Positions 13,419-32,669 of a DNA stretch of 64,000 bases are shown here, one piece after another. Below the pieces are notes generated by a model. The model did not search any database. It was not told where the DNA came from and worked only from the letters and a program-made list of their open reading frames with translations. Origin of the DNA: a phage. Positions within the stretch are counted from its first letter, which is position 1. Every line of letters begins with the position of its first letter. The translations under genes were made by a program, and so were the position numbers. The stretch lies in assembly GCA_019326865.1 (NCBI GenBank), contig GCA_019326865.1_4101.1. One strand, 5' to 3'.

Positions 13419-13646
13419 ATGATTGATAATAATTTTAAGGGAGTCCCTGTGCGTATTTTAACTCAAGCAGAACACCACGAAAGACTTATCAATAACATGG
13501 CTATGATAATGTATAAGTCCCATGACCGTGGTATTGCCTATAAGCGTGAATTAGTACTGGAACTATTCATTGGAACTAACTTTCAGGAAAGGTATGTCAA
13601 CGATTGGATTTGGTATTTAATTGAAGATATAACGAGTAAACTATGA
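13419..13646 (+). CDS. family A paralog (LGTNYQ motif), hypothetical
   Basis: famA motif IGTNFQERYV; start may be GTG 13446 after SD AGGGAG. Confidence 0.6.
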   Translation: MIDNNFKGVPVRILTQAEHHERLINNMAMIMYKSHDRGIAYKRELVLELFIGTNFQERYVNDWIWYLIEDITSKL

Positions 13647-13837
13647 TCATTTTAAATAAAGAAGAATATCAAGAACTGTTACGTAAAAACTTTGTAAAGA
13701 TTTATAATACAGACACACACGTAGAACGAATGGAGTTATACCTTTTGATTACATTGGGAACTAACTATCAGGAAAGATGGGTGATTCAATATATGGATAC
13801 ATTGAAAAATAAAATATTGTCCACGAGGAAACAATGA
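13643..13837 (+). CDS. family A paralog, hypothetical
   Basis: famA LGTNYQERWV; ATGA-coupled. Confidence 0.6.
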   Translation: MIILNKEEYQELLRKNFVKIYNTDTHVERMELYLLITLGTNYQERWVIQYMDTLKNKILSTRKQ

Positions 13838-14043
13838 AAACTATAACACGAACCCAATCATTCGGACTTATCTTGAAATACATGGACTTAATGGTGGATA
13901 TCAGCAAAGACCTGCCTAAAACTGCAATTGAAGTTGCAAGAGCAGAGATCCGCATGTTGGCTGTACTGAACACAAACCATCAGGAAGAGTATGTTGACGA
14001 TTGGATTCGATTTTTAATAGAAGATATTAAGAGTAAACTATGA
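13834..14043 (+). CDS. family A paralog, hypothetical
   Basis: famA LNTNHQEEYV; ATGA-coupled. Confidence 0.6.
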   Translation: MKTITRTQSFGLILKYMDLMVDISKDLPKTAIEVARAEIRMLAVLNTNHQEEYVDDWIRFLIEDIKSKL

Positions 14044-14252
14044 TTATATTAACACCTGAAGAATATAAGAAACGTTTTAATTCTGTCCAGACTGAAATAT
14101 TACTTATATACCTTTCAAATGCAGATCTTAACTTATCAAGGGTAATGGAGAAGGATTTACTTATGGGTGCATTTTTGGATACAGACTTTCAGGAGTATTA
14201 TGTAGGGGAATACTTTATTGCACTTCAGAACCACATTAAGAGTAAACTATGA
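14040..14252 (+). CDS. family A paralog, hypothetical
   Basis: famA LDTDFQEYYV; ATGA-coupled. Confidence 0.6.
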   Translation: MIILTPEEYKKRFNSVQTEILLIYLSNADLNLSRVMEKDLLMGAFLDTDFQEYYVGEYFIALQNHIKSKL

Positions 14253-14464
14253 TTATTCTAGAAAAATCATATCAATATACTGAACGCATCGCTGCCAGAC
14301 AACTTGAAATCCTCATAATATACGAAGAGACTTCTGATTTAAACTTAGCCGAGGTATTGGAAAATGAAATACTTTTGGGTGCATTCTTGGGAACAGACTA
14401 TCAGGAGTATTATGAGGAAAAGTATTTGTCATCTCTTGAGAAATACGTCAGGAGCAAACTATGA
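14249..14464 (+). CDS. family A paralog, hypothetical
   Basis: famA LGTDYQEYYE; ATGA-coupled. Confidence 0.6.
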   Translation: MIILEKSYQYTERIAARQLEILIIYEETSDLNLAEVLENEILLGAFLGTDYQEYYEEKYLSSLEKYVRSKL

Positions 14465-14688
14465 AACATTTAAGTAATATAGAGAAGAATAAAATTATCA
14501 TTGCTGTAATAAACAAATATTTTACACTTCCACAAAAAGAATGTTTATCTATAAGGGAACACAGGATAAACACCACCGAGATTCGCATGTTGGCTGTACT
14601 GGGGACTAACTTCCAAGAAGGCTATGTTCATGAGCACATCGTTGCACTCACTAATTACATAATGGACAAATGCAATGAACATCATTAA
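14461..14688 (+). CDS. family A paralog, hypothetical
   Basis: famA LGTNFQEGYV. Confidence 0.6.
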   Translation: MKHLSNIEKNKIIIAVINKYFTLPQKECLSIREHRINTTEIRMLAVLGTNFQEGYVHEHIVALTNYIMDKCNEHH

Positions 14689-14899
14689 TAACTTTGAATA
14701 CGAGGCCCGTGTTAAGAGTGCCAGAAAAAAAGAGAACACCATTTACTTCACTATGATGTACTTACAATGGACTGAAATTGAAGAAAAGGTTGCTGAAGTA
14801 TGGATGTTGGAATTCATGGGGACGCAGTATCAGAATAGGTTTGCGGGTGAGTATATCAATGTTCTTATGAAACAAATAGAAAGGAAGGAAAAGAACTAA
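14675..14899 (+). CDS. family A paralog, hypothetical
   Basis: famA MGTQYQNRFA. Confidence 0.55.
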   Translation: MNIINNFEYEARVKSARKKENTIYFTMMYLQWTEIEEKVAEVWMLEFMGTQYQNRFAGEYINVLMKQIERKEKN

Positions 14900-14988
14900 T
14901 GGAGGGATGCTGTACTTTATTGGAACTTTTATATATTCATGAACACATAGTTGCCCTCACAAATCTAATAAAGGATAAATGTAAATGA
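14899..14988 (+). pseudogene. truncated family A remnant (29 codons)
   Basis: encodes MEGCCTLLELLYIHEHIVALTNLIKDKCK, matching only the C-terminal end of 14461..14688. Confidence 0.45.
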
Positions 14989-15242
14989 AACACTTGACTG
15001 ATGATGAACATGAAACTATAATTCGTAAACTAACCCCCATCACAAGGATAGTCTACGGTGATCCCAGCCTCACATGGAACCAAATGCGAGCTAAAGTTAA
15101 TGAGCTATGGTTGCTGTACTTTATGGGGACTCAATATCAAGATAAGTTTTGCACAGAATATATCGAACAATTAACGAATGTTATACAGGATAAACTAAAT
15201 GAACGAATTGTGGAAAAATATGAAAACTTTATCAAGCATTGA
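14985..15242 (+). CDS. family A paralog, hypothetical
   Basis: famA MGTQYQDKFC; N-terminus MKHLTDDEH shared with 17780. Confidence 0.6.
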   Translation: MKHLTDDEHETIIRKLTPITRIVYGDPSLTWNQMRAKVNELWLLYFMGTQYQDKFCTEYIEQLTNVIQDKLNERIVEKYENFIKH

Positions 15243-15471
15243 GTATCAGACTGCCCTCTTCTCTCTTCTAAACACCCTCCGCACGAACAATAAACTTTAT
15301 AATTCACGTGAAGCTGATATTGTCAACGCTGATGTATATCTTAATAAATTTATAGGGACTAACTATCAAGAACTGTTTGTTTTACGATATATCTCTGCAC
15401 TAAGAAACGAAATATCAGATAAAACCCGCCAAGCCAGAAGAGAATGGAAGAGACAATGCAACAAAGACTAA
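15199..15471 (+). CDS. family A paralog, hypothetical
   Basis: famA IGTNYQELFV; start may be ATG 15220. Confidence 0.55.
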   Translation: MNELWKNMKTLSSIEYQTALFSLLNTLRTNNKLYNSREADIVNADVYLNKFIGTNYQELFVLRYISALRNEISDKTRQARREWKRQCNKD

Positions 15472-15707
15472 ATCACAAAATGTATTGTAAACTATTACAG
15501 AATCTAGGACAAAAACACTATGATACAGTATCTGAAATATTACCCTATGATATCATGCGTTTAATTCATAGTGAGGCAGAGATGCTTGTACTGATGACCG
15601 GTACTGATAAAACAGCAATCACCAGATCGATAGAGCAATATATTGATGCACACTGTCAATGTATTAGAACTGAGATATGGAGGCGAGTAAATGAAAGTAC
15701 TGAATGA
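15444..15707 (+). CDS. family A-like divergent paralog, hypothetical
   Basis: position in array; degenerate motif MTGTDKTAI. Confidence 0.5.
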   Translation: MEETMQQRLNHKMYCKLLQNLGQKHYDTVSEILPYDIMRLIHSEAEMLVLMTGTDKTAITRSIEQYIDAHCQCIRTEIWRRVNESTE

Positions 15708-15906
15708 GTATCAGTATCATTGGAGGTTACAAACTATAAGAGGGAAAGTTGTTAGTATTTCTTTAGACAAGTCTATTGCACAAGAGGACAAATGTGTTAT
15801 AATAGCTGAAATGAAGTTGGGTGTATTTGTAGGAACAAACTATCAAAACATCTACACTGACGTATTATTAAGTGCCTTACGCAACAAGGTGTTATCCAGA
15901 GAATGA
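15691..15906 (+). CDS. family A paralog, hypothetical
   Basis: famA VGTNYQNIYT. Confidence 0.6.
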   Translation: MKVLNEYQYHWRLQTIRGKVVSISLDKSIAQEDKCVIIAEMKLGVFVGTNYQNIYTDVLLSALRNKVLSRE

Positions 15907-16121
15907 GAAAATTAATAGGTTACGAATATGTTAAGCTTCTGAAAACCTGTAGTATTAGCAGGGTAAAGATTCAATCTGATAAGAGTATTCCTGTTGAACT
16001 AAAGTACGCAATGATGGCTGAACTTTATGTAGGTGCACTATTGGGGACAAACTATCAACAAATGTATGTAGACCTATGGGTTGACGCTCTACTGAAAGAG
16101 GTCCAAAGTAAATGCAAATGA
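15903..16121 (+). CDS. family A paralog, hypothetical
   Basis: famA LGTNYQQMYV; ATGA-coupled. Confidence 0.6.
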   Translation: MRKLIGYEYVKLLKTCSISRVKIQSDKSIPVELKYAMMAELYVGALLGTNYQQMYVDLWVDALLKEVQSKCK

Positions 16122-16333
16122 TTCATTTATCTTACTATGAATATCAAAAACGTTTAAATGCATCAAGGGATATAAGGATTAAAATCTACAATAACAAAAG
16201 ATTGAAATCTGAAGCCAAAAAAATCAAAATGATAGAAGCTGAATTATGCAACTTCCTTGGGACGAACTATCAGGATGATAAGGTAACAAACTATCTTAGA
16301 GAACTAATGATTAGTATCAAGAGTAAATGTTAG
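16112..16333 (+). CDS. family A paralog, hypothetical
   Basis: famA LGTNYQDDKV. Confidence 0.6.
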   Translation: MQMIHLSYYEYQKRLNASRDIRIKIYNNKRLKSEAKKIKMIEAELCNFLGTNYQDDKVTNYLRELMISIKSKC

Positions 16334-16337
16334 GCAG

Positions 16338-16595
16338 ATGTACATGAAAATGATTAAATTATCTCAAGCAAAATATAAAGAACGCCTGGAAAAAATTACA
16401 CCTAGACTTAATGAAATCCATCACGGAGAAGTCATTAAACACGGAAATAAGATGATTATGAAACTTGAGTTAAAGGTGGGTGCATTCATAGGAACAAACT
16501 ATCAGGAGTATTATGTAGATGAATACATAATCGCACTTAAGAGATACATTGGAAGAAAACTATATCTACAAACTAAAGAATTGTATTGCAAATAA
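16338..16595 (+). CDS. family A paralog, hypothetical
   Basis: famA IGTNYQEYYV. Confidence 0.6.
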   Translation: MYMKMIKLSQAKYKERLEKITPRLNEIHHGEVIKHGNKMIMKLELKVGAFIGTNYQEYYVDEYIIALKRYIGRKLYLQTKELYCK

Positions 16596-16876
16596 ATGCA
16601 AGGATAATGAATATGAAAATGATCAATTTAAGTAAAGATGAATATACCGAGCGTATGACAAAAATTACGCACAAACGTAATACAATCTATCACAACCCAG
16701 AAATTCAACACAGTAAGAAAATGATTATGATGCGTGAGTTAAAGATGGGTGTATTCTTGGGAACAAACTATCAAGATACAGAAGTAAATCGCTTAATCGC
16801 GGAGTTACTACTGGAAATCAGAGGTAAGCTGTACTTTCATCAAATGACCCAACCACTGAGGTGTACTAAGAAATGA
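16586..16876 (+). CDS. family A paralog, hypothetical
   Basis: famA LGTNYQDTEV. Confidence 0.6.
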   Translation: MQINARIMNMKMINLSKDEYTERMTKITHKRNTIYHNPEIQHSKKMIMMRELKMGVFLGTNYQDTEVNRLIAELLLEIRGKLYFHQMTQPLRCTKK

Positions 16877-17088
16877 TCAACATCACATTGCAAGAAAGAT
16901 TCATCCGAATCAACTATGCAATTACCAAATTAGATGCTACTATAGGATTCCAAAGTCTACCGTTCCAAACAAGAATGATATTAGAGTGCGAAGCTAAATT
17001 GGGTGTACTGTTAGGAACGCAACACCAACAACGATATGTGGAAATCTGGATTGATCTTTTAACCCAAAATGTACATGAGAAAATGTAA
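16873..17088 (+). CDS. family A paralog, hypothetical
   Basis: famA LGTQHQQRYV; ATGA-coupled. Confidence 0.6.
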   Translation: MINITLQERFIRINYAITKLDATIGFQSLPFQTRMILECEAKLGVLLGTQHQQRYVEIWIDLLTQNVHEKM

Positions 17089-17325
17089 ATGAAAAATGAA
17101 ATGATATACTTAACGAATGAAGAGTTTCAAGAGAAGATGTTAAAAATCTATGATAATACTCTTGAGTACGTTCCAAATCAATCAATATATGAAGTGTCTG
17201 CGAATGTATTATTTCAGAAGCTACCATACGTTCTTGGAACGGATAAACAAGAATTTATGGTCAAAAATATGATTGAACATCTTATGATGAGTATTAAGGA
17301 AAAAGTGAATGCAAAAGAAAAATGA
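17089..17325 (+). CDS. family A paralog, hypothetical
   Basis: famA LGTDKQEFMV. Confidence 0.6.
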   Translation: MKNEMIYLTNEEFQEKMLKIYDNTLEYVPNQSIYEVSANVLFQKLPYVLGTDKQEFMVKNMIEHLMMSIKEKVNAKEK

Positions 17326-17572
17326 AATGATATACTTAACACCTGCTGAGTTAACAGAAAGACTAGTTAAATCCAGAAGATATACAAATCAACTTCCTCA
17401 CAACCCAAATCAAACCCCAGCGGAAAGGAGTGCAGAAGTTTTATTCCAATCACTACCATACCTTCTTGGAACTAATAGACAAGAGTATCATATCGAACGT
17501 ATAATTAAATATCTTAAAATTACTATTAAGGAAAAAGTAAATGCTCAAGAATTTAAAAATCCTAACAGTTAA
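17309..17572 (+). CDS. family A paralog, hypothetical
   Basis: famA LGTNRQEYHI; N-terminus near-identical to 17089. Confidence 0.6.
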   Translation: MQKKNEMIYLTPAELTERLVKSRRYTNQLPHNPNQTPAERSAEVLFQSLPYLLGTNRQEYHIERIIKYLKITIKEKVNAQEFKNPNS

Positions 17573-17783
17573 TGAATATCATAAGATTGTAATGAAAACT
17601 AATAGTGCAATTTCTAAAAAATCAAACCCAAAGTACATACTGGAACACACATTTGAAGAACGTCAATTAGCTTTAGTTGAAGCAAAACTTCTTGCACTCT
17701 TAGGAACAAACTATCAGGAAGAATACATCAGAAAACTAATATACCTTTTAACTAAACACATCAGGAAAAGAAAAAAAGCATGA
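17541..17783 (+). CDS. family A paralog, hypothetical
   Basis: famA LGTNYQEEYI. Confidence 0.6.
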   Translation: MLKNLKILTVNEYHKIVMKTNSAISKKSNPKYILEHTFEERQLALVEAKLLALLGTNYQEEYIRKLIYLLTKHIRKRKKA

Positions 17784-18010
17784 AGCACTTGACAGATGAT
17801 GAACATGGGCTTATAGTAATGGATGTAATCAACATCGAATACAAAAAGTTGATACGCTATCGTTGTTATGAAGATAAGCAACTAGTTCTAGCAGAACAGA
17901 AGTTGTTTCGACTCTTAAACACAAACTTCCAAGCACAATACGAAGAATCGTATATGTACCTTTTGGCGAGGAAAGCAAAAAGAGATTATGAAAATTTTAA
18001 GCAAAGGTGA
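17780..18010 (+). CDS. family A paralog, hypothetical
   Basis: famA LNTNFQAQYE; ATGA-coupled. Confidence 0.6.
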   Translation: MKHLTDDEHGLIVMDVINIEYKKLIRYRCYEDKQLVLAEQKLFRLLNTNFQAQYEESYMYLLARKAKRDYENFKQR

Positions 18011-18209
18011 TTCAGTAATATTACTTATAGAGAGTTCAAATAAATTCTTAAACATAACACTGTCTGATATAGATGAAGATGATAAAGAAGTACTGAGAGC
18101 AGATTTAAGAGTACTGTTACATCTCGGAACAAACCTACAAGAAGAATATGTAGAGTACTACATTGATGAACTTAAAGAATCAGTACTGAGAAGATGCAAA
18201 TGCGAATGA
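17988..18209 (+). CDS. family A paralog, hypothetical
   Basis: famA LGTNLQEEYV. Confidence 0.6.
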   Translation: MKILSKGDSVILLIESSNKFLNITLSDIDEDDKEVLRADLRVLLHLGTNLQEEYVEYYIDELKESVLRRCKCE

Positions 18210-18421
18210 TTACCGACGAAGAATACCTAACAATTATAAATGGATTGTTTTTGAAGTTGTTTGTTATTAACACATCAGATATACCAGATATGGATAAAAT
18301 TATTAAGAGAAATGAAATCTATGTTCTAGCTACCCTGGGAACTAACTATCAAGAATGCAATATTAATGATTATATTAATACACTTAAAGGAGCGATTGAA
18401 CTAAAATGCCAAAACCACTAG
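18194..18421 (+). CDS. family A paralog, hypothetical
   Basis: famA LGTNYQECNI. Confidence 0.6.
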   Translation: MQMRMITDEEYLTIINGLFLKLFVINTSDIPDMDKIIKRNEIYVLATLGTNYQECNINDYINTLKGAIELKCQNH

Positions 18422-18621
18422 GAACAGCAGAATACATTGAACTCATGGGATTACACTTCTCATCCTTTCAGAAACTTATGCGAGAATCAAAGAATGATTT
18501 AGAATATACCATCAGAGGTTCAGATTTAAGAATGCTTCTCACCCTAGACACAGATTCCCAAGAGAGATTTGTCAATGAGCATATTAGAGCACTTTTAATG
18601 GAAATTAAAAGTAAACTATGA
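18406..18621 (+). CDS. family A paralog, hypothetical
   Basis: famA LDTDSQERFV. Confidence 0.6.
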   Translation: MPKPLGTAEYIELMGLHFSSFQKLMRESKNDLEYTIRGSDLRMLLTLDTDSQERFVNEHIRALLMEIKSKL

Positions 18622-18833
18622 AGGTAATATCAAACCAAGAGTACTTGGCACTATTCAGGAAGAATAATCACAAATATATGGCACTTGATTCAAGAACTGA
18701 TATAGGGGAACTTGAAAAAAATCTTTTGCGTTCAGAGATGATAGTACTGACACTCTTAGGAACACAACATCAAGAGAGAACTGTTGATTCATATATTGAG
18801 ATTCTTAAGAAGCTTATACAGGAAAAACTATGA
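18618..18833 (+). CDS. family A paralog, hypothetical
   Basis: famA LGTQHQERTV; ATGA-coupled. Confidence 0.6.
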   Translation: MKVISNQEYLALFRKNNHKYMALDSRTDIGELEKNLLRSEMIVLTLLGTQHQERTVDSYIEILKKLIQEKL

Positions 18834-19060
18834 GAATCATAACACAAACAGACATATTTAAGTTAGCAAGGGAACATACATCTGAAATTGATGCTATAGT
18901 ATCAAAAAGTTACAATGACCCTTATACACAAGATGTGCACTACAATGAATTATGGGTGTATATACTTTTAGGTACAAATTATCAAGAGCAAGCAGTACAG
19001 AAGTATTTGGCAGCTTTAAGTACTGCTACTGCTAATAGTATAGGTATTAAAAAATGCTAG
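18830..19060 (+). CDS. family A paralog, hypothetical
   Basis: famA LGTNYQEQAV; ATGA-coupled. Confidence 0.6.
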   Translation: MRIITQTDIFKLAREHTSEIDAIVSKSYNDPYTQDVHYNELWVYILLGTNYQEQAVQKYLAALSTATANSIGIKKC

Positions 19061-19290
19061 TACTGACAGAACTAGAAATGTATCATAGATTTAATAAGTA
19101 CTATCATTTACTTAAGCCTATACAGAGGATTAAATGTCCATTTGAAGAGAAACAGGTATTAATTTATGAGCATAAGTTATTTGTATCATTAGGTACGAAT
19201 GAACAAGAGTATTATTTGAAGTTGTACTTAATTACTTTAATTGAATTGATTAATCACAAAACACAGAAAGCTAAGAAATCTAAAAAATGA
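19054..19290 (+). CDS. family A paralog, hypothetical
   Basis: famA LGTNEQEYYL. Confidence 0.6.
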   Translation: MLVLTELEMYHRFNKYYHLLKPIQRIKCPFEEKQVLIYEHKLFVSLGTNEQEYYLKLYLITLIELINHKTQKAKKSKK

Positions 19291-19625
19291 AAACTAATAT
19301 TCAACTCAAGGTATACATATCTTATGAATCTATATACATCAAATGCAGTCTATGTAAAGATGTAATGGATTATAAAGGTAAGCCATTCACAATTACTTAC
19401 AGTCTAACAGGAGGCTTTTATATATCTTTTGTTGATTACGAAAATAAAATATACAAGCACATTGATATTAAAGATTTAAGTACCTTGTCAGATGAGGAAT
19501 ACTTTCAAGAATCATTAGTATGGGATTTAGAGTTTCCTATGACATTAGTACACAAAATGATAGTACTAATGAAAGAAACTAAACCTGAGCCGAGTGGTTA
19601 TGAAGAATTCATTATTGAGTATTAA
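19287..19625 (+). CDS. family B paralog (acidic-FQxS motif), hypothetical
   Basis: famB SDEEYFQESLVWD; sits inside family A array. Confidence 0.6.
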   Translation: MKTNIQLKVYISYESIYIKCSLCKDVMDYKGKPFTITYSLTGGFYISFVDYENKIYKHIDIKDLSTLSDEEYFQESLVWDLEFPMTLVHKMIVLMKETKPEPSGYEEFIIEY

Positions 19626-19637
19626 GAGTACTGATAT

Positions 19638-19853
19638 ATGAAAAGATTATCATACAAAGATTACAGTAAACTTATCAGTACTTTACAACCAGAAATTAGA
19701 AGAATTAATTATCTTCCTATATCTAACGAAGAACGTGTAGTACTGAAAAATGAGTTAATATTAAAACGCACAGTAGGTACTAACTATCAAGATAATAGTG
19801 TTTGCGATTTAATTAGAGGGTTAATGATCACAATAAAGGCCAAGTGCTATTGA
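19638..19853 (+). CDS. family A paralog, hypothetical
   Basis: famA VGTNYQDNSV. Confidence 0.6.
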   Translation: MKRLSYKDYSKLISTLQPEIRRINYLPISNEERVVLKNELILKRTVGTNYQDNSVCDLIRGLMITIKAKCY

Positions 19854-19917: not shown

Positions 19918-20163
19918 ATGTTAAAATTTTTAAATTTCCTTATCGTCTTGTGTATTGTTCTTGGGATTGCACCGTTTGTACTGGTGTATATGGATTCAGA
20001 TGAAATGCAAAAGATGAATTGCACAAAGACGGGACAGAGTAGAGAAGAGACGATTCTTATGCCTGTTACTGTTATTGTTAATAATATGCCCATTACAAAC
20101 ATGGTCCCTACCCTAACGACAACGTACCAGTACTCTTGTACAGACGGGGAGAGGTGGAGATGA
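19918..20163 (+). CDS. hypothetical membrane protein (81 aa)
   Basis: ORF track; N-terminal hydrophobic helix FLNFLIVLCIVLGIAPFVLVY. Confidence 0.55.
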   Translation: MLKFLNFLIVLCIVLGIAPFVLVYMDSDEMQKMNCTKTGQSREETILMPVTVIVNNMPITNMVPTLTTTYQYSCTDGERWR

Positions 20164-20480
20164 AATTTAATATAGCAAAAACATCGAATGTATGTATATT
20201 TGGTTATGCAGAAGAGTTAGGTGATATTGACATTCTTTTGTACAAAAAGGATGGTGTTATGCATTTCAAGTACCAGGATGAAGAGGCAGACAATTATCTT
20301 TTGCCTAATTTAGTACAAATGCAGGAAGAGGAATTATTCCAGTACAGCTTAGTATATGACATTGATATTTGCACGATGCCAGTACTAATTAATATTCAAA
20401 AAGTGATGCTCGATGTGTTTGATAGGCTAATACAAGGCACACAAGGAAGAACCATATATGTCAATGTACAAGACAATTAA
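20136..20480 (+). CDS. family B paralog, hypothetical
   Basis: famB QEEELFQYSLVYD. Confidence 0.6.
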   Translation: MYRRGEVEMKFNIAKTSNVCIFGYAEELGDIDILLYKKDGVMHFKYQDEEADNYLLPNLVQMQEEELFQYSLVYDIDICTMPVLINIQKVMLDVFDRLIQGTQGRTIYVNVQDN

Positions 20481-20673
20481 TCAAGAATGGAAGAATCAAA
20501 AGTACAGAGAATTCAATAGGAATTTTACAAAAGACGAATTGAATATAAAAACAACAGAATTTGATATGTTTATTTTTCTCGGAACACGTTCTCAGGAGCA
20601 ATTTGTTCATTATTATATAAATTCGTTGCGAGCGGAGATAGTATGCAAAACAAAGGGTATTATAAAAAGGTAA
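20458..20673 (+). CDS. family A paralog, hypothetical
   Basis: famA LGTRSQEQFV. Confidence 0.55.
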   Translation: MSMYKTINQEWKNQKYREFNRNFTKDELNIKTTEFDMFIFLGTRSQEQFVHYYINSLRAEIVCKTKGIIKR

Positions 20674-20909
20674 ACCAACATTTGTACGCTACAAAGTACA
20701 GGGATTTTTGTTTAAAGGGTGGTGATGAAGATTTTTCTTTGCGATTATCAGAATTTAATCTGTTATTTTATCTTGGTACATCGGAACAAGAAGAAATGGC
20801 ACAGAAATTTCTCAATCACCTTGTACAAAAAATTAATATGCAAATTTTGATGCTTAAGTTACAGGATGAGATAAATGAATATGAACCCAACAATAGTACA
20901 GGATCTTAA
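20643..20909 (+). CDS. family A paralog, hypothetical
   Basis: famA LGTSEQEEMA. Confidence 0.55.
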   Translation: MQNKGYYKKVNQHLYATKYRDFCLKGGDEDFSLRLSEFNLLFYLGTSEQEEMAQKFLNHLVQKINMQILMLKLQDEINEYEPNNSTGS

Positions 20910-31771: not shown

Positions 31772-32304
31772 TGAAAGTTAACATTAATGACTTTGATGCA
31801 TTACAAGATTTATCAAAAAAGATTCGCACCATCGTACCAGTACTTAAAAAATGCAGTACTGGTTTAATCGATCCTAGTTCTGTTGTCAATGAGAAGTACA
31901 ATTTTCATCGTGTATTACAGGGGACAGGTGCATTTCAGAAGTGTGAGGTACGTGAGAAACATGTAATTGATACATCGTTGTTTTCTATTGGTGCACCTGT
32001 GTCAAACAATACTATTTTCCTGGATGCATCTGGAAATATTCAACAATTAACATTTAAGAAAAGGAAAAAGAATAATAACATTGGTGTGTACGCGATGAAG
32101 TGGGGACAGCCAGCGTTGATGCGTGACATTCACATTCCTAAGTACAATTTCAATGCATTTGAAGAACAGTGTTTTCAACTTTCTTGTACTGACCCTGACT
32201 ATGCTATCATTCAATTCTATATGGAATTGCAGATTGCATTTAATAGTAATTTGTATATTAACTTATTGGCAATGAACATAGATGAAGTATTCAAAAACAT
32301 TTAA
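31768..32304 (+). CDS. family B paralog, hypothetical
   Basis: famB AFEEQCFQLSCTDPD; ATGA-coupled. Confidence 0.55.
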   Translation: MMKVNINDFDALQDLSKKIRTIVPVLKKCSTGLIDPSSVVNEKYNFHRVLQGTGAFQKCEVREKHVIDTSLFSIGAPVSNNTIFLDASGNIQQLTFKKRKKNNNIGVYAMKWGQPALMRDIHIPKYNFNAFEEQCFQLSCTDPDYAIIQFYMELQIAFNSNLYINLLAMNIDEVFKNI

Positions 32305-32500
32305 TCGAATTGAATACATGAGAACTGTGAGAGCGGTGTGGAATATATGGTACACTACTAAACCAAAAATGGATTACCATGATTTTAAGCTCTTGTTCTT
32401 TGTTGGCTCTAACAAACAGGATGTTGCAATGAAGGGTTATATTCAGCACTTACAGGAACTAATCCAGAAGAGAATATATGAAAATAATAGACCAAAATGA
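32282..32500 (+). CDS. family A paralog, hypothetical
   Basis: famA-like VGSNKQDVAM; stray copy inside family B array. Confidence 0.5.
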   Translation: MKYSKTFNRIEYMRTVRAVWNIWYTTKPKMDYHDFKLLFFVGSNKQDVAMKGYIQHLQELIQKRIYENNRPK

Positions 32501-32669
32501 CATTGCTAAACTATTCAATATATATTCTACTAGAATGATGCAAACAGATTCATATAGTACTAAATTCAAAGAGTTGAAAGTACTGATGTACTTGGGAACA
32601 CAATATCAGGAACAAGTTATTTTAGAATATATTAATTCATTAAAGAAGGATATCCGTGATGTACGATGA
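32478..32669 (+). CDS. family A paralog, hypothetical
   Basis: famA LGTQYQEQVI. Confidence 0.55.
   Translation: MKIIDQNDIAKLFNIYSTRMMQTDSYSTKFKELKVLMYLGTQYQEQVILEYINSLKKDIRDVR

Follow-up and report, generated by a model that had tools for sequence, protein, structure and literature searches.

The 29-codon open reading frame (ORF) at positions 14899..14988 of the plus strand, which runs from ATG to TGA and encodes MEGCCTLLELLYIHEHIVALTNLIKDKCK, is very probably a pseudogene relic of a gene of 52 codons (S below) that lost two small segments through illegitimate deletion. It lies in a 64,000-nucleotide stretch of a phage contig (GCA_019326865.1_4101.1), referred to below as the window. An intact ortholog of S is found at the same position in related phages, and the window carries disabling lesions relative to that ortholog. 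The original prediction had taken the ORF for a truncated full-length member of a gene array and for the deletion scar of an unequal crossover. A deletion-derived relic it is; its ancestor was the 52-codon S, which metagenome contigs and 10 phage genomes still carry intact, and not a full-length member, and the deletions were two small intragenic ones with only 1-2 nt of microhomology.

The best matches of the window were jumbo Escherichia and Salmonella phages of the genus Asteriusvirus (PBECO4, 121Q, and G17). The nearest phage was UE-S1, whose identity was 94% across 3 kb and 97.5% in the 620 bases that surround the relic. On the plus strand of the window, from about 13419 to 19853, small genes of 64-96 codons stand one behind another; they are co-directional, and their stop codons overlap the start codons of the genes that follow (ATGA, TAATG). 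The array genes share the consensus ...LGTNYQExYVxxYIxxLxxxIxxK and fit the 74-position PHROG profile phrog_4148, annotated "function unknown," from end to end with E-values of 4e-15 to 5e-23. Searches of the family against Pfam and NCBIfam gave sub-threshold noise only. A hidden Markov model (HMM) built from 26 members in the window recovered all 26, in 13419..19853, and also detected four diverged members on the plus strand (20458..20673, 20643..20909, 32282..32500, and 32478..32669; E 1e-12 to 3e-5), for a family total of about 30 copies. These four sit outside the main array and form two overlapping pairs. Two non-family ORFs of 112 and 114 amino acids (19287..19625 and 20136..20480, plus strand), loosely alike by eye only, interrupt or follow the array.

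In a 27-sequence alignment of the family, the motif (L/F/M)-G-T-x-x-Q was conserved, with T49 invariant and Q52 nearly invariant (at least 90%). The AlphaFold model of the member at 14461..14688, made with the paralog alignment as input, had a pLDDT of 93.7 and helices at residues 6-22, 31-45, and 52-73. A PDB fold search with this model returned nothing better than E = 2.6, and the matches in a viral structure library were Asteriusvirus paralogs only, from the same phage group. Among 50,697 phage records, tblastn detected the family in just 36, all of them Escherichia or Salmonella phages of about 310-390 kb, and a literature search of the Asteriusvirus genome papers revealed no description of the array or its paralogs.

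As the original prediction had it, the 29-codon ORF is flanked by two full-length members. Directly upstream is N (14675..14899, plus strand, 74 amino acids; phrog_4148 E 4.8e-23), and directly downstream is H (14985..15242, plus strand, 85 amino acids; phrog_4148 E 3.7e-21). N is preceded by K' (14461..14688, plus strand, 75 amino acids; phrog_4148 E 4e-15), whose 3' end resembles the relic. The ATG of the relic overlaps the stop codon of N (TAATG, 14897..14901) and its TGA overlaps the start codon of H (ATGA, 14985..14988), giving it the co-directional array position with start and stop overlaps that marks family members.

The in-frame tail of the relic (14932..14984, plus strand; YIHEHIVALTNLIKDKCK) corresponds to helix 3 of the family fold only and is homologous to 14623..14675, the 3' end of K', which was its best match among the 26 paralogs in the window. 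The alignment is gapless with 42 of 53 nucleotides identical (about 79%), and its local score of 31 was reached by none of 2000 shuffles (mean 9.7, maximum 17). The similarity proposed for this pair is thus present at the DNA level; to call the two tails nearly identical was an overstatement, as only 14 of 18 residues agree when the translations YIHEHIVALTNLIKDKCK and YVHEHIVALTNYIMDKCN are read side by side. The relic tail was in fact nearer to the S orthologs of other phages (92-94%) and to the tail of gene K of phage SP27 (85%) than to K' in the window.

That the ORF encodes only a C-terminal-like tail holds for the part read in frame, and the 5' part is also family DNA. The segment 14905..14927 (plus strand) is a relic of the motif region, which encodes G-W-M-L-Y-F-L-G-T in S and is now read out of frame as GCCTLLEL. 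Its best match was 15109..15131 in H, which encodes W-L-L-Y-F-M-G-T. The relic has no in-frame GT..Q motif, the DNA of its first half being kept out of frame and the S-H-Q-N codons deleted, and it has neither helix 1 nor helix 2, so that only the equivalent of helix 3 is encoded from the three-helix architecture of about 70 residues. The window-built HMM matched the tail at positions 55-72 of 73 only (E 0.0056, 14 bits), compared with 58-92 bits for full members, and an hmmscan of the relic against PHROG gave no family at E <= 0.01. The relic is the leftover of a phrog_4148 family member and not itself a member. The minus-strand ORFs across this region, of 24-28 codons, had no similarity to anything.

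Ten phage genomes (G17, JP4, PBECO4, slurp01, Sharanji, CRJP21, and four Salmonella SD phages) have S itself at the position between N and H, where it reads MVFINISDQLDTKLEVEQSEGWMLYFLGTSHQNFYIHEHIVALTNLIRDKCK. It was also present in two metagenome contigs (L008 and L009) whose K' and N, as well as a conserved gene E, were 99-100% identical to those of the window. A scan of the JGI metagenomes returned two contigs only, both with intact S, and an IMG/VR scan with the H protein returned phage 121Q alone. A diverged S with 77% amino acid identity and exactly 52 codons was found in the K'-N-S-H context on eight Logan contigs, of which six were examined (L025-L030). Between the S genes of G17 and L025 there were 22 substitutions, no indel, and a dN/dS of 0.32 (one-sided binomial p 0.014-0.04), which makes S look like a maintained short member of the family without helix 1; by this comparison, the gene shows signs of purifying selection. 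S matched positions 27-72 of phrog_4148 and also matched phrog_28039, a 53-position profile again annotated "function unknown."

The original prediction had proposed to look in related genomes for a full-length gene at this position, and none was found, the 52-codon S standing there instead. No version of S of about 70 amino acids was detected in the 50,697 phage records or in a collection of 5.8 billion proteins, and all S forms in the latter were 52 amino acids long except one read-through variant on a 517-nt contig. This variant (L031 288..509; ENA ERZ27269292) reads into the H region to give a 73-amino-acid product and appears, judging from the protein, to have lost its stop codon. The K-like tail is an older feature of S in all S-bearing phages and not a recent scar in the window genome.

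When aligned with S from G17, JP4, and L008, the window showed two gaps and no more, one of 58 nt and one of 11 nt. The 58-nt gap begins directly after the ATG and comprises S codons 2 to about 20 (...CTAAT[GGTTTTC...AGAGTGA]GGA(T>G)GGATG, missing segment in brackets). Its junction lies at 14900..14903 (plus strand), within which the exact breakpoint is ambiguous, and shows 2 nt of microhomology (GG). At the second junction (14927..14928, plus strand; 1 nt of microhomology, T) the 11 nt TCTCATCAAAA are missing, which hold the S-H-Q-N codons of the GT..Q motif, and this deletion restores the original S frame. In sum, 69 nt, or 23 codons, were lost from a gene of 159 nt. Because the two deletions add up to 69 nt, the frame is shifted only between the junctions, over about 9 of the remaining codons, and the S frame is back for the last 18 codons. 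Introduction of both deletions into S gave the reconstruction MDGCCTFLELFYIHEHIVALTNLIRDKCK, as against the observed MEGCCTLLELLYIHEHIVALTNLIKDKCK. When applied singly to S of JP4, deletion 1 left a 20-codon ORF and deletion 2 a 33-codon ORF, each with a premature stop 40-50 nt before the start of H; it is the two together that restore the frame.

The polarity of the change, from S to relic, is clear, since the motif DNA is read in frame in S, as part of a family-conforming protein, and out of frame in the relic; that insertions should have rebuilt a conforming protein from the relic is implausible. No intermediate with only one of the deletions was found, and an exact search of IMG/VR for the junction of deletion 1 gave no match. 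Relative to JP4 and outside the gaps, the relic carried substitutions at 6 of 90 positions and the adjacent N at 2 of 224 (Fisher p 0.008) in a locus that is a recombination mosaic. This excess in the relic is consistent with relaxed constraint, the alternative being the recombination mosaicism of the locus.

UE-S1 carries the same two-deletion relic with one amino-acid difference. Exact look-up of the window N and H proteins in Logan and ENA revealed 10 further independent assemblies, from different samples, with both deletions, and the N-H spacing was 85 nt in all 10. There were three alleles of the relic, which differed at two positions, both in the frame-shifted part; the tail was invariant, and the ORF was open in all 12 sequences (the window, UE-S1, and the 10 assemblies). 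The occurrence in UE-S1 and 10 assemblies indicates that the relic is inherited and not an artefact. In one relic-bearing Logan contig (L023 1191..1415; ERR11566739_5846), N was frame-shifted by a homopolymer change from A7 to A8, which might reflect an error of sequencing or the decay of a second gene beside the relic.

We reconstruct the following course of events. One sub-lineage of these phages carries the short 52-codon S, without helix 1, between N and H, and in the lineage of the window S has very probably been inactivated by the loss of 58 nt directly after the start codon and of 11 nt in the GT..Q core. As microhomology at the junctions amounts to only 1-2 nt, replication slippage or illegitimate recombination is the likely mechanism, and not homologous unequal crossover. 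The total loss of 69 nt restores the frame, and an ORF from the start codon of S to the stop codon of S persists for that reason. Since only helix 3 of the three-helix fold remains, a folded functional protein is unlikely, and judging from the structural model the relic ORF most likely yields no working protein.

The retained tail would still act as the translation initiation region of H. It contains a putative Shine-Dalgarno (SD)-like sequence, AAGGA (14971..14975, plus strand), 9 nt before the start codon of H, and read from the sequence this element probably works as the ribosome-binding site of H. The tail may have escaped deletion because it holds both AAGGA and the ATGA overlap. Another putative SD-like sequence, AGGAAGGA (14882..14889, plus strand), lies 9 nt before the ATG of the relic, within the 3' end of N. 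It is nearly conserved in the S-bearing phages, with one substitution (G/A at window position 14884), and its region would be the original translation start region of S.

The gene content of the interval bounded by the conserved E gene and the gene that follows H varied among genomes, with at least six arrangements, and the array is dynamic in the sense that the original prediction had suggested. K-H was found in SP27-type phages (12 records), which have neither N nor S; K-X-H, where X is an extra gene of 72 amino acids, in Turkey3-type phages and TH47; K'-N-S-H in G17-type phages; K'-N-relic-H in the window, UE-S1, and the 10 assemblies; N'-H in 121Q; and, in A4, N with the gene that otherwise follows H directly behind it. 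In addition, identity switched gene by gene across window positions 14249..15471 in comparison with the sequences L002, L008, L003, and L001. K' of the window was 100% identical to that of the metagenome contig L008 and only 81% to that of UE-S1, whereas H was 99% identical to that of UE-S1 and only 78% to that of L008. Relative to metagenome contig OEQX01000020.1, E, K', and N of the window were likewise 99-100% identical and H only 78%, and relative to UE-S1, N, the relic, and H were 97-100% identical.

Gene K of SP27-type phages is a full-length member of 72 amino acids that stands directly before H and ends in ...HIVALTDLIRDKCK. At the DNA level, SP27 K follows K' up to CACATAGTTGC.CTCAC, and past this point it follows S (CTAATAAGGGA.AAATGTAAATGAAACACTT) and not K' (TACATAATGGACAAATG.AATGAACATC). 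The join between the K' head and the S tail spans a shared CACATAGTTGCACTCAC stretch, and in JP4 a stretch of 17 nt is identical between K' and S at the switch point. A crossover between K' and S would take out 378 nt, from the K' tail through N to the S head, and so produce exactly the SP27 arrangement. SP27-type K is therefore, on this DNA comparison, a good candidate for an unequal-crossover product made of a K' head and an S tail, with N missing. As the direction is read from alignments, the reverse, by insertion into K rather than deletion by crossover, may also apply. In either direction, the exchange between K' and S concerns other genomes and not the origin of the 29-codon relic.

It is against this background that the 29-codon ORF might itself be viewed as a scar of homologous unequal crossover between neighboring full-length members in the window genome. 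The homology of its tail to the 3' end of 14461..14688 and the variable gene content of the locus would agree with such an origin, and the SP27-type K makes it plausible that unequal crossover operates here. However, the relic differs from S by gaps of 58 and 11 nt that lie inside a single gene and are bordered by only 1-2 nt of microhomology, and no whole repeat units have been lost. Chimeras of full length, and not ORFs reduced to a tail, are what a crossover at homologous positions produces; the intact S of other phages already has the K-like tail, and no full-length ancestor of S was found. We therefore consider a crossover scar to be highly unlikely. A chance ORF, or an artefact of assembly or sequencing, has practically no probability. 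The ORF is very short and was not called by the gene caller of the public collection, but its similarity is highly non-random and colinear with S, and an identical structure recurs in 12 independent sequences.

Alternatively, the ORF might have been kept open by selection, either as a translational bridge, with ribosomes that finish at the ATGA overlap starting again on H, or as a micro-peptide of helix 3 only, with the 11-nt deletion being compensatory. It is true that the deletions sum to a multiple of three, that either one alone would end translation 40-50 nt before H, and that AGGAAGGA at 9 nt upstream and both overlaps have been retained. The ORF is also open in 12 of 12 sequences, with both polymorphic sites in the frame-shifted part and an invariant tail. 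Yet the 12 sequences are nearly identical and were partly chosen for identical N or H proteins, so that they have no statistical power and lend little weight to selection, and we estimate the combined probability of restoring the frame (1/3) and of finding the shifted 9-codon stretch open by chance at about 0.2. Moreover, H has an SD-like AAGGA of its own, and a single helix is, from the model, unlikely to fold alone. Selection for the open frame is thus improbable to our minds, and a pseudogene relic of S made by two small deletions remains the preferred reading.

Bacterial and phage genomes contain unitary pseudogenes and gene relics that small deletions and frameshifts have produced. The relic resembles these in that related phages have an intact ortholog in its place, in that it carries disabling deletions and is out of frame over part of its length, and in that it has more substitutions than the adjoining gene N, in a locus that is mosaic. 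Unlike the usual unitary pseudogene, its two lesions restore the frame, and an ORF with the original start, the original stop, and both overlaps persists. Birth-and-death multigene families are known from large DNA viruses, as in the MGF360/505 arrays of African swine fever virus and the hyperplastic regions of T4-like phages, where small co-directional paralogs of unknown or host-interaction function stand in tandem, vary in copy number and content among close relatives, and include truncated copies. The window array is alike in its tandem co-directional paralogs, its content varying over at least six arrangements at one spot, and its truncated copies, and has no sequence or fold relationship to those systems.

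The relic alone matters little, being most likely a dead copy of a small gene and an ordinary pseudogene. Annotations would do better to leave the 29-codon ORF uncalled or to label it as what remains of S, and it can serve as a marker for one Asteriusvirus sub-lineage. Of wider interest is that an array of about 30 paralogs turns over fast between otherwise close phages: genes are gained and lost, sequence is exchanged in mosaic fashion where genes meet, small segments are deleted, and unequal crossover probably takes place. Such turnover is the pattern expected for genes in phage-host conflict, and for this reason it is the family, rather than the relic, that is worth studying.

A second orphan tail (EENYIYKLKNCIANKCK) with the helix-3 pattern was detected at 16552..16602 on the plus strand (HMM positions 56-72, E 0.03). 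The two orphan tails, at 14899..14988 and 16552..16602, might be read as footprints of recurrent module-wise recombination with breakpoints clustered in the helix-3 segment, which would drive the birth and death of an early-region family and in which the first ORF may be kept open for coupling through a compensatory second deletion; we hold this to be speculative and rather unlikely. The tail at 16552..16602 lies in a frame shifted relative to the gene at 16338..16595. It was 80-86% identical to the 3' end of the full-length gene that abuts the gene starting with MKMINLSKDEY in Turkey3 and 121Q, both of which are without the 16338-type gene. Its anatomy, an extra gene followed by a duplicated tail, is that of the K'-N-S-H pattern.

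The relic region was also considered as a regulatory RNA or a terminator and rejected in both roles: 14880..15010 folded as RNA with a z-score of -0.01, that is, no structure signal, and a scan for terminators found none near the relic. In the promoter and terminator scan, the number of matches was not above that of shuffles (42 versus 36.9 +/- 5.6). Among these, two sigma-70-like matches of 11/12, in a count that is not above shuffles, lie at 14994..15022 (TTGACT-17-TATAAT) and 17789..17817 (TTGACA-17-TATAGT) on the plus strand. They are two of the three best in the array and stand just inside the 5' ends of two genes that start with MKHLTDDEH.
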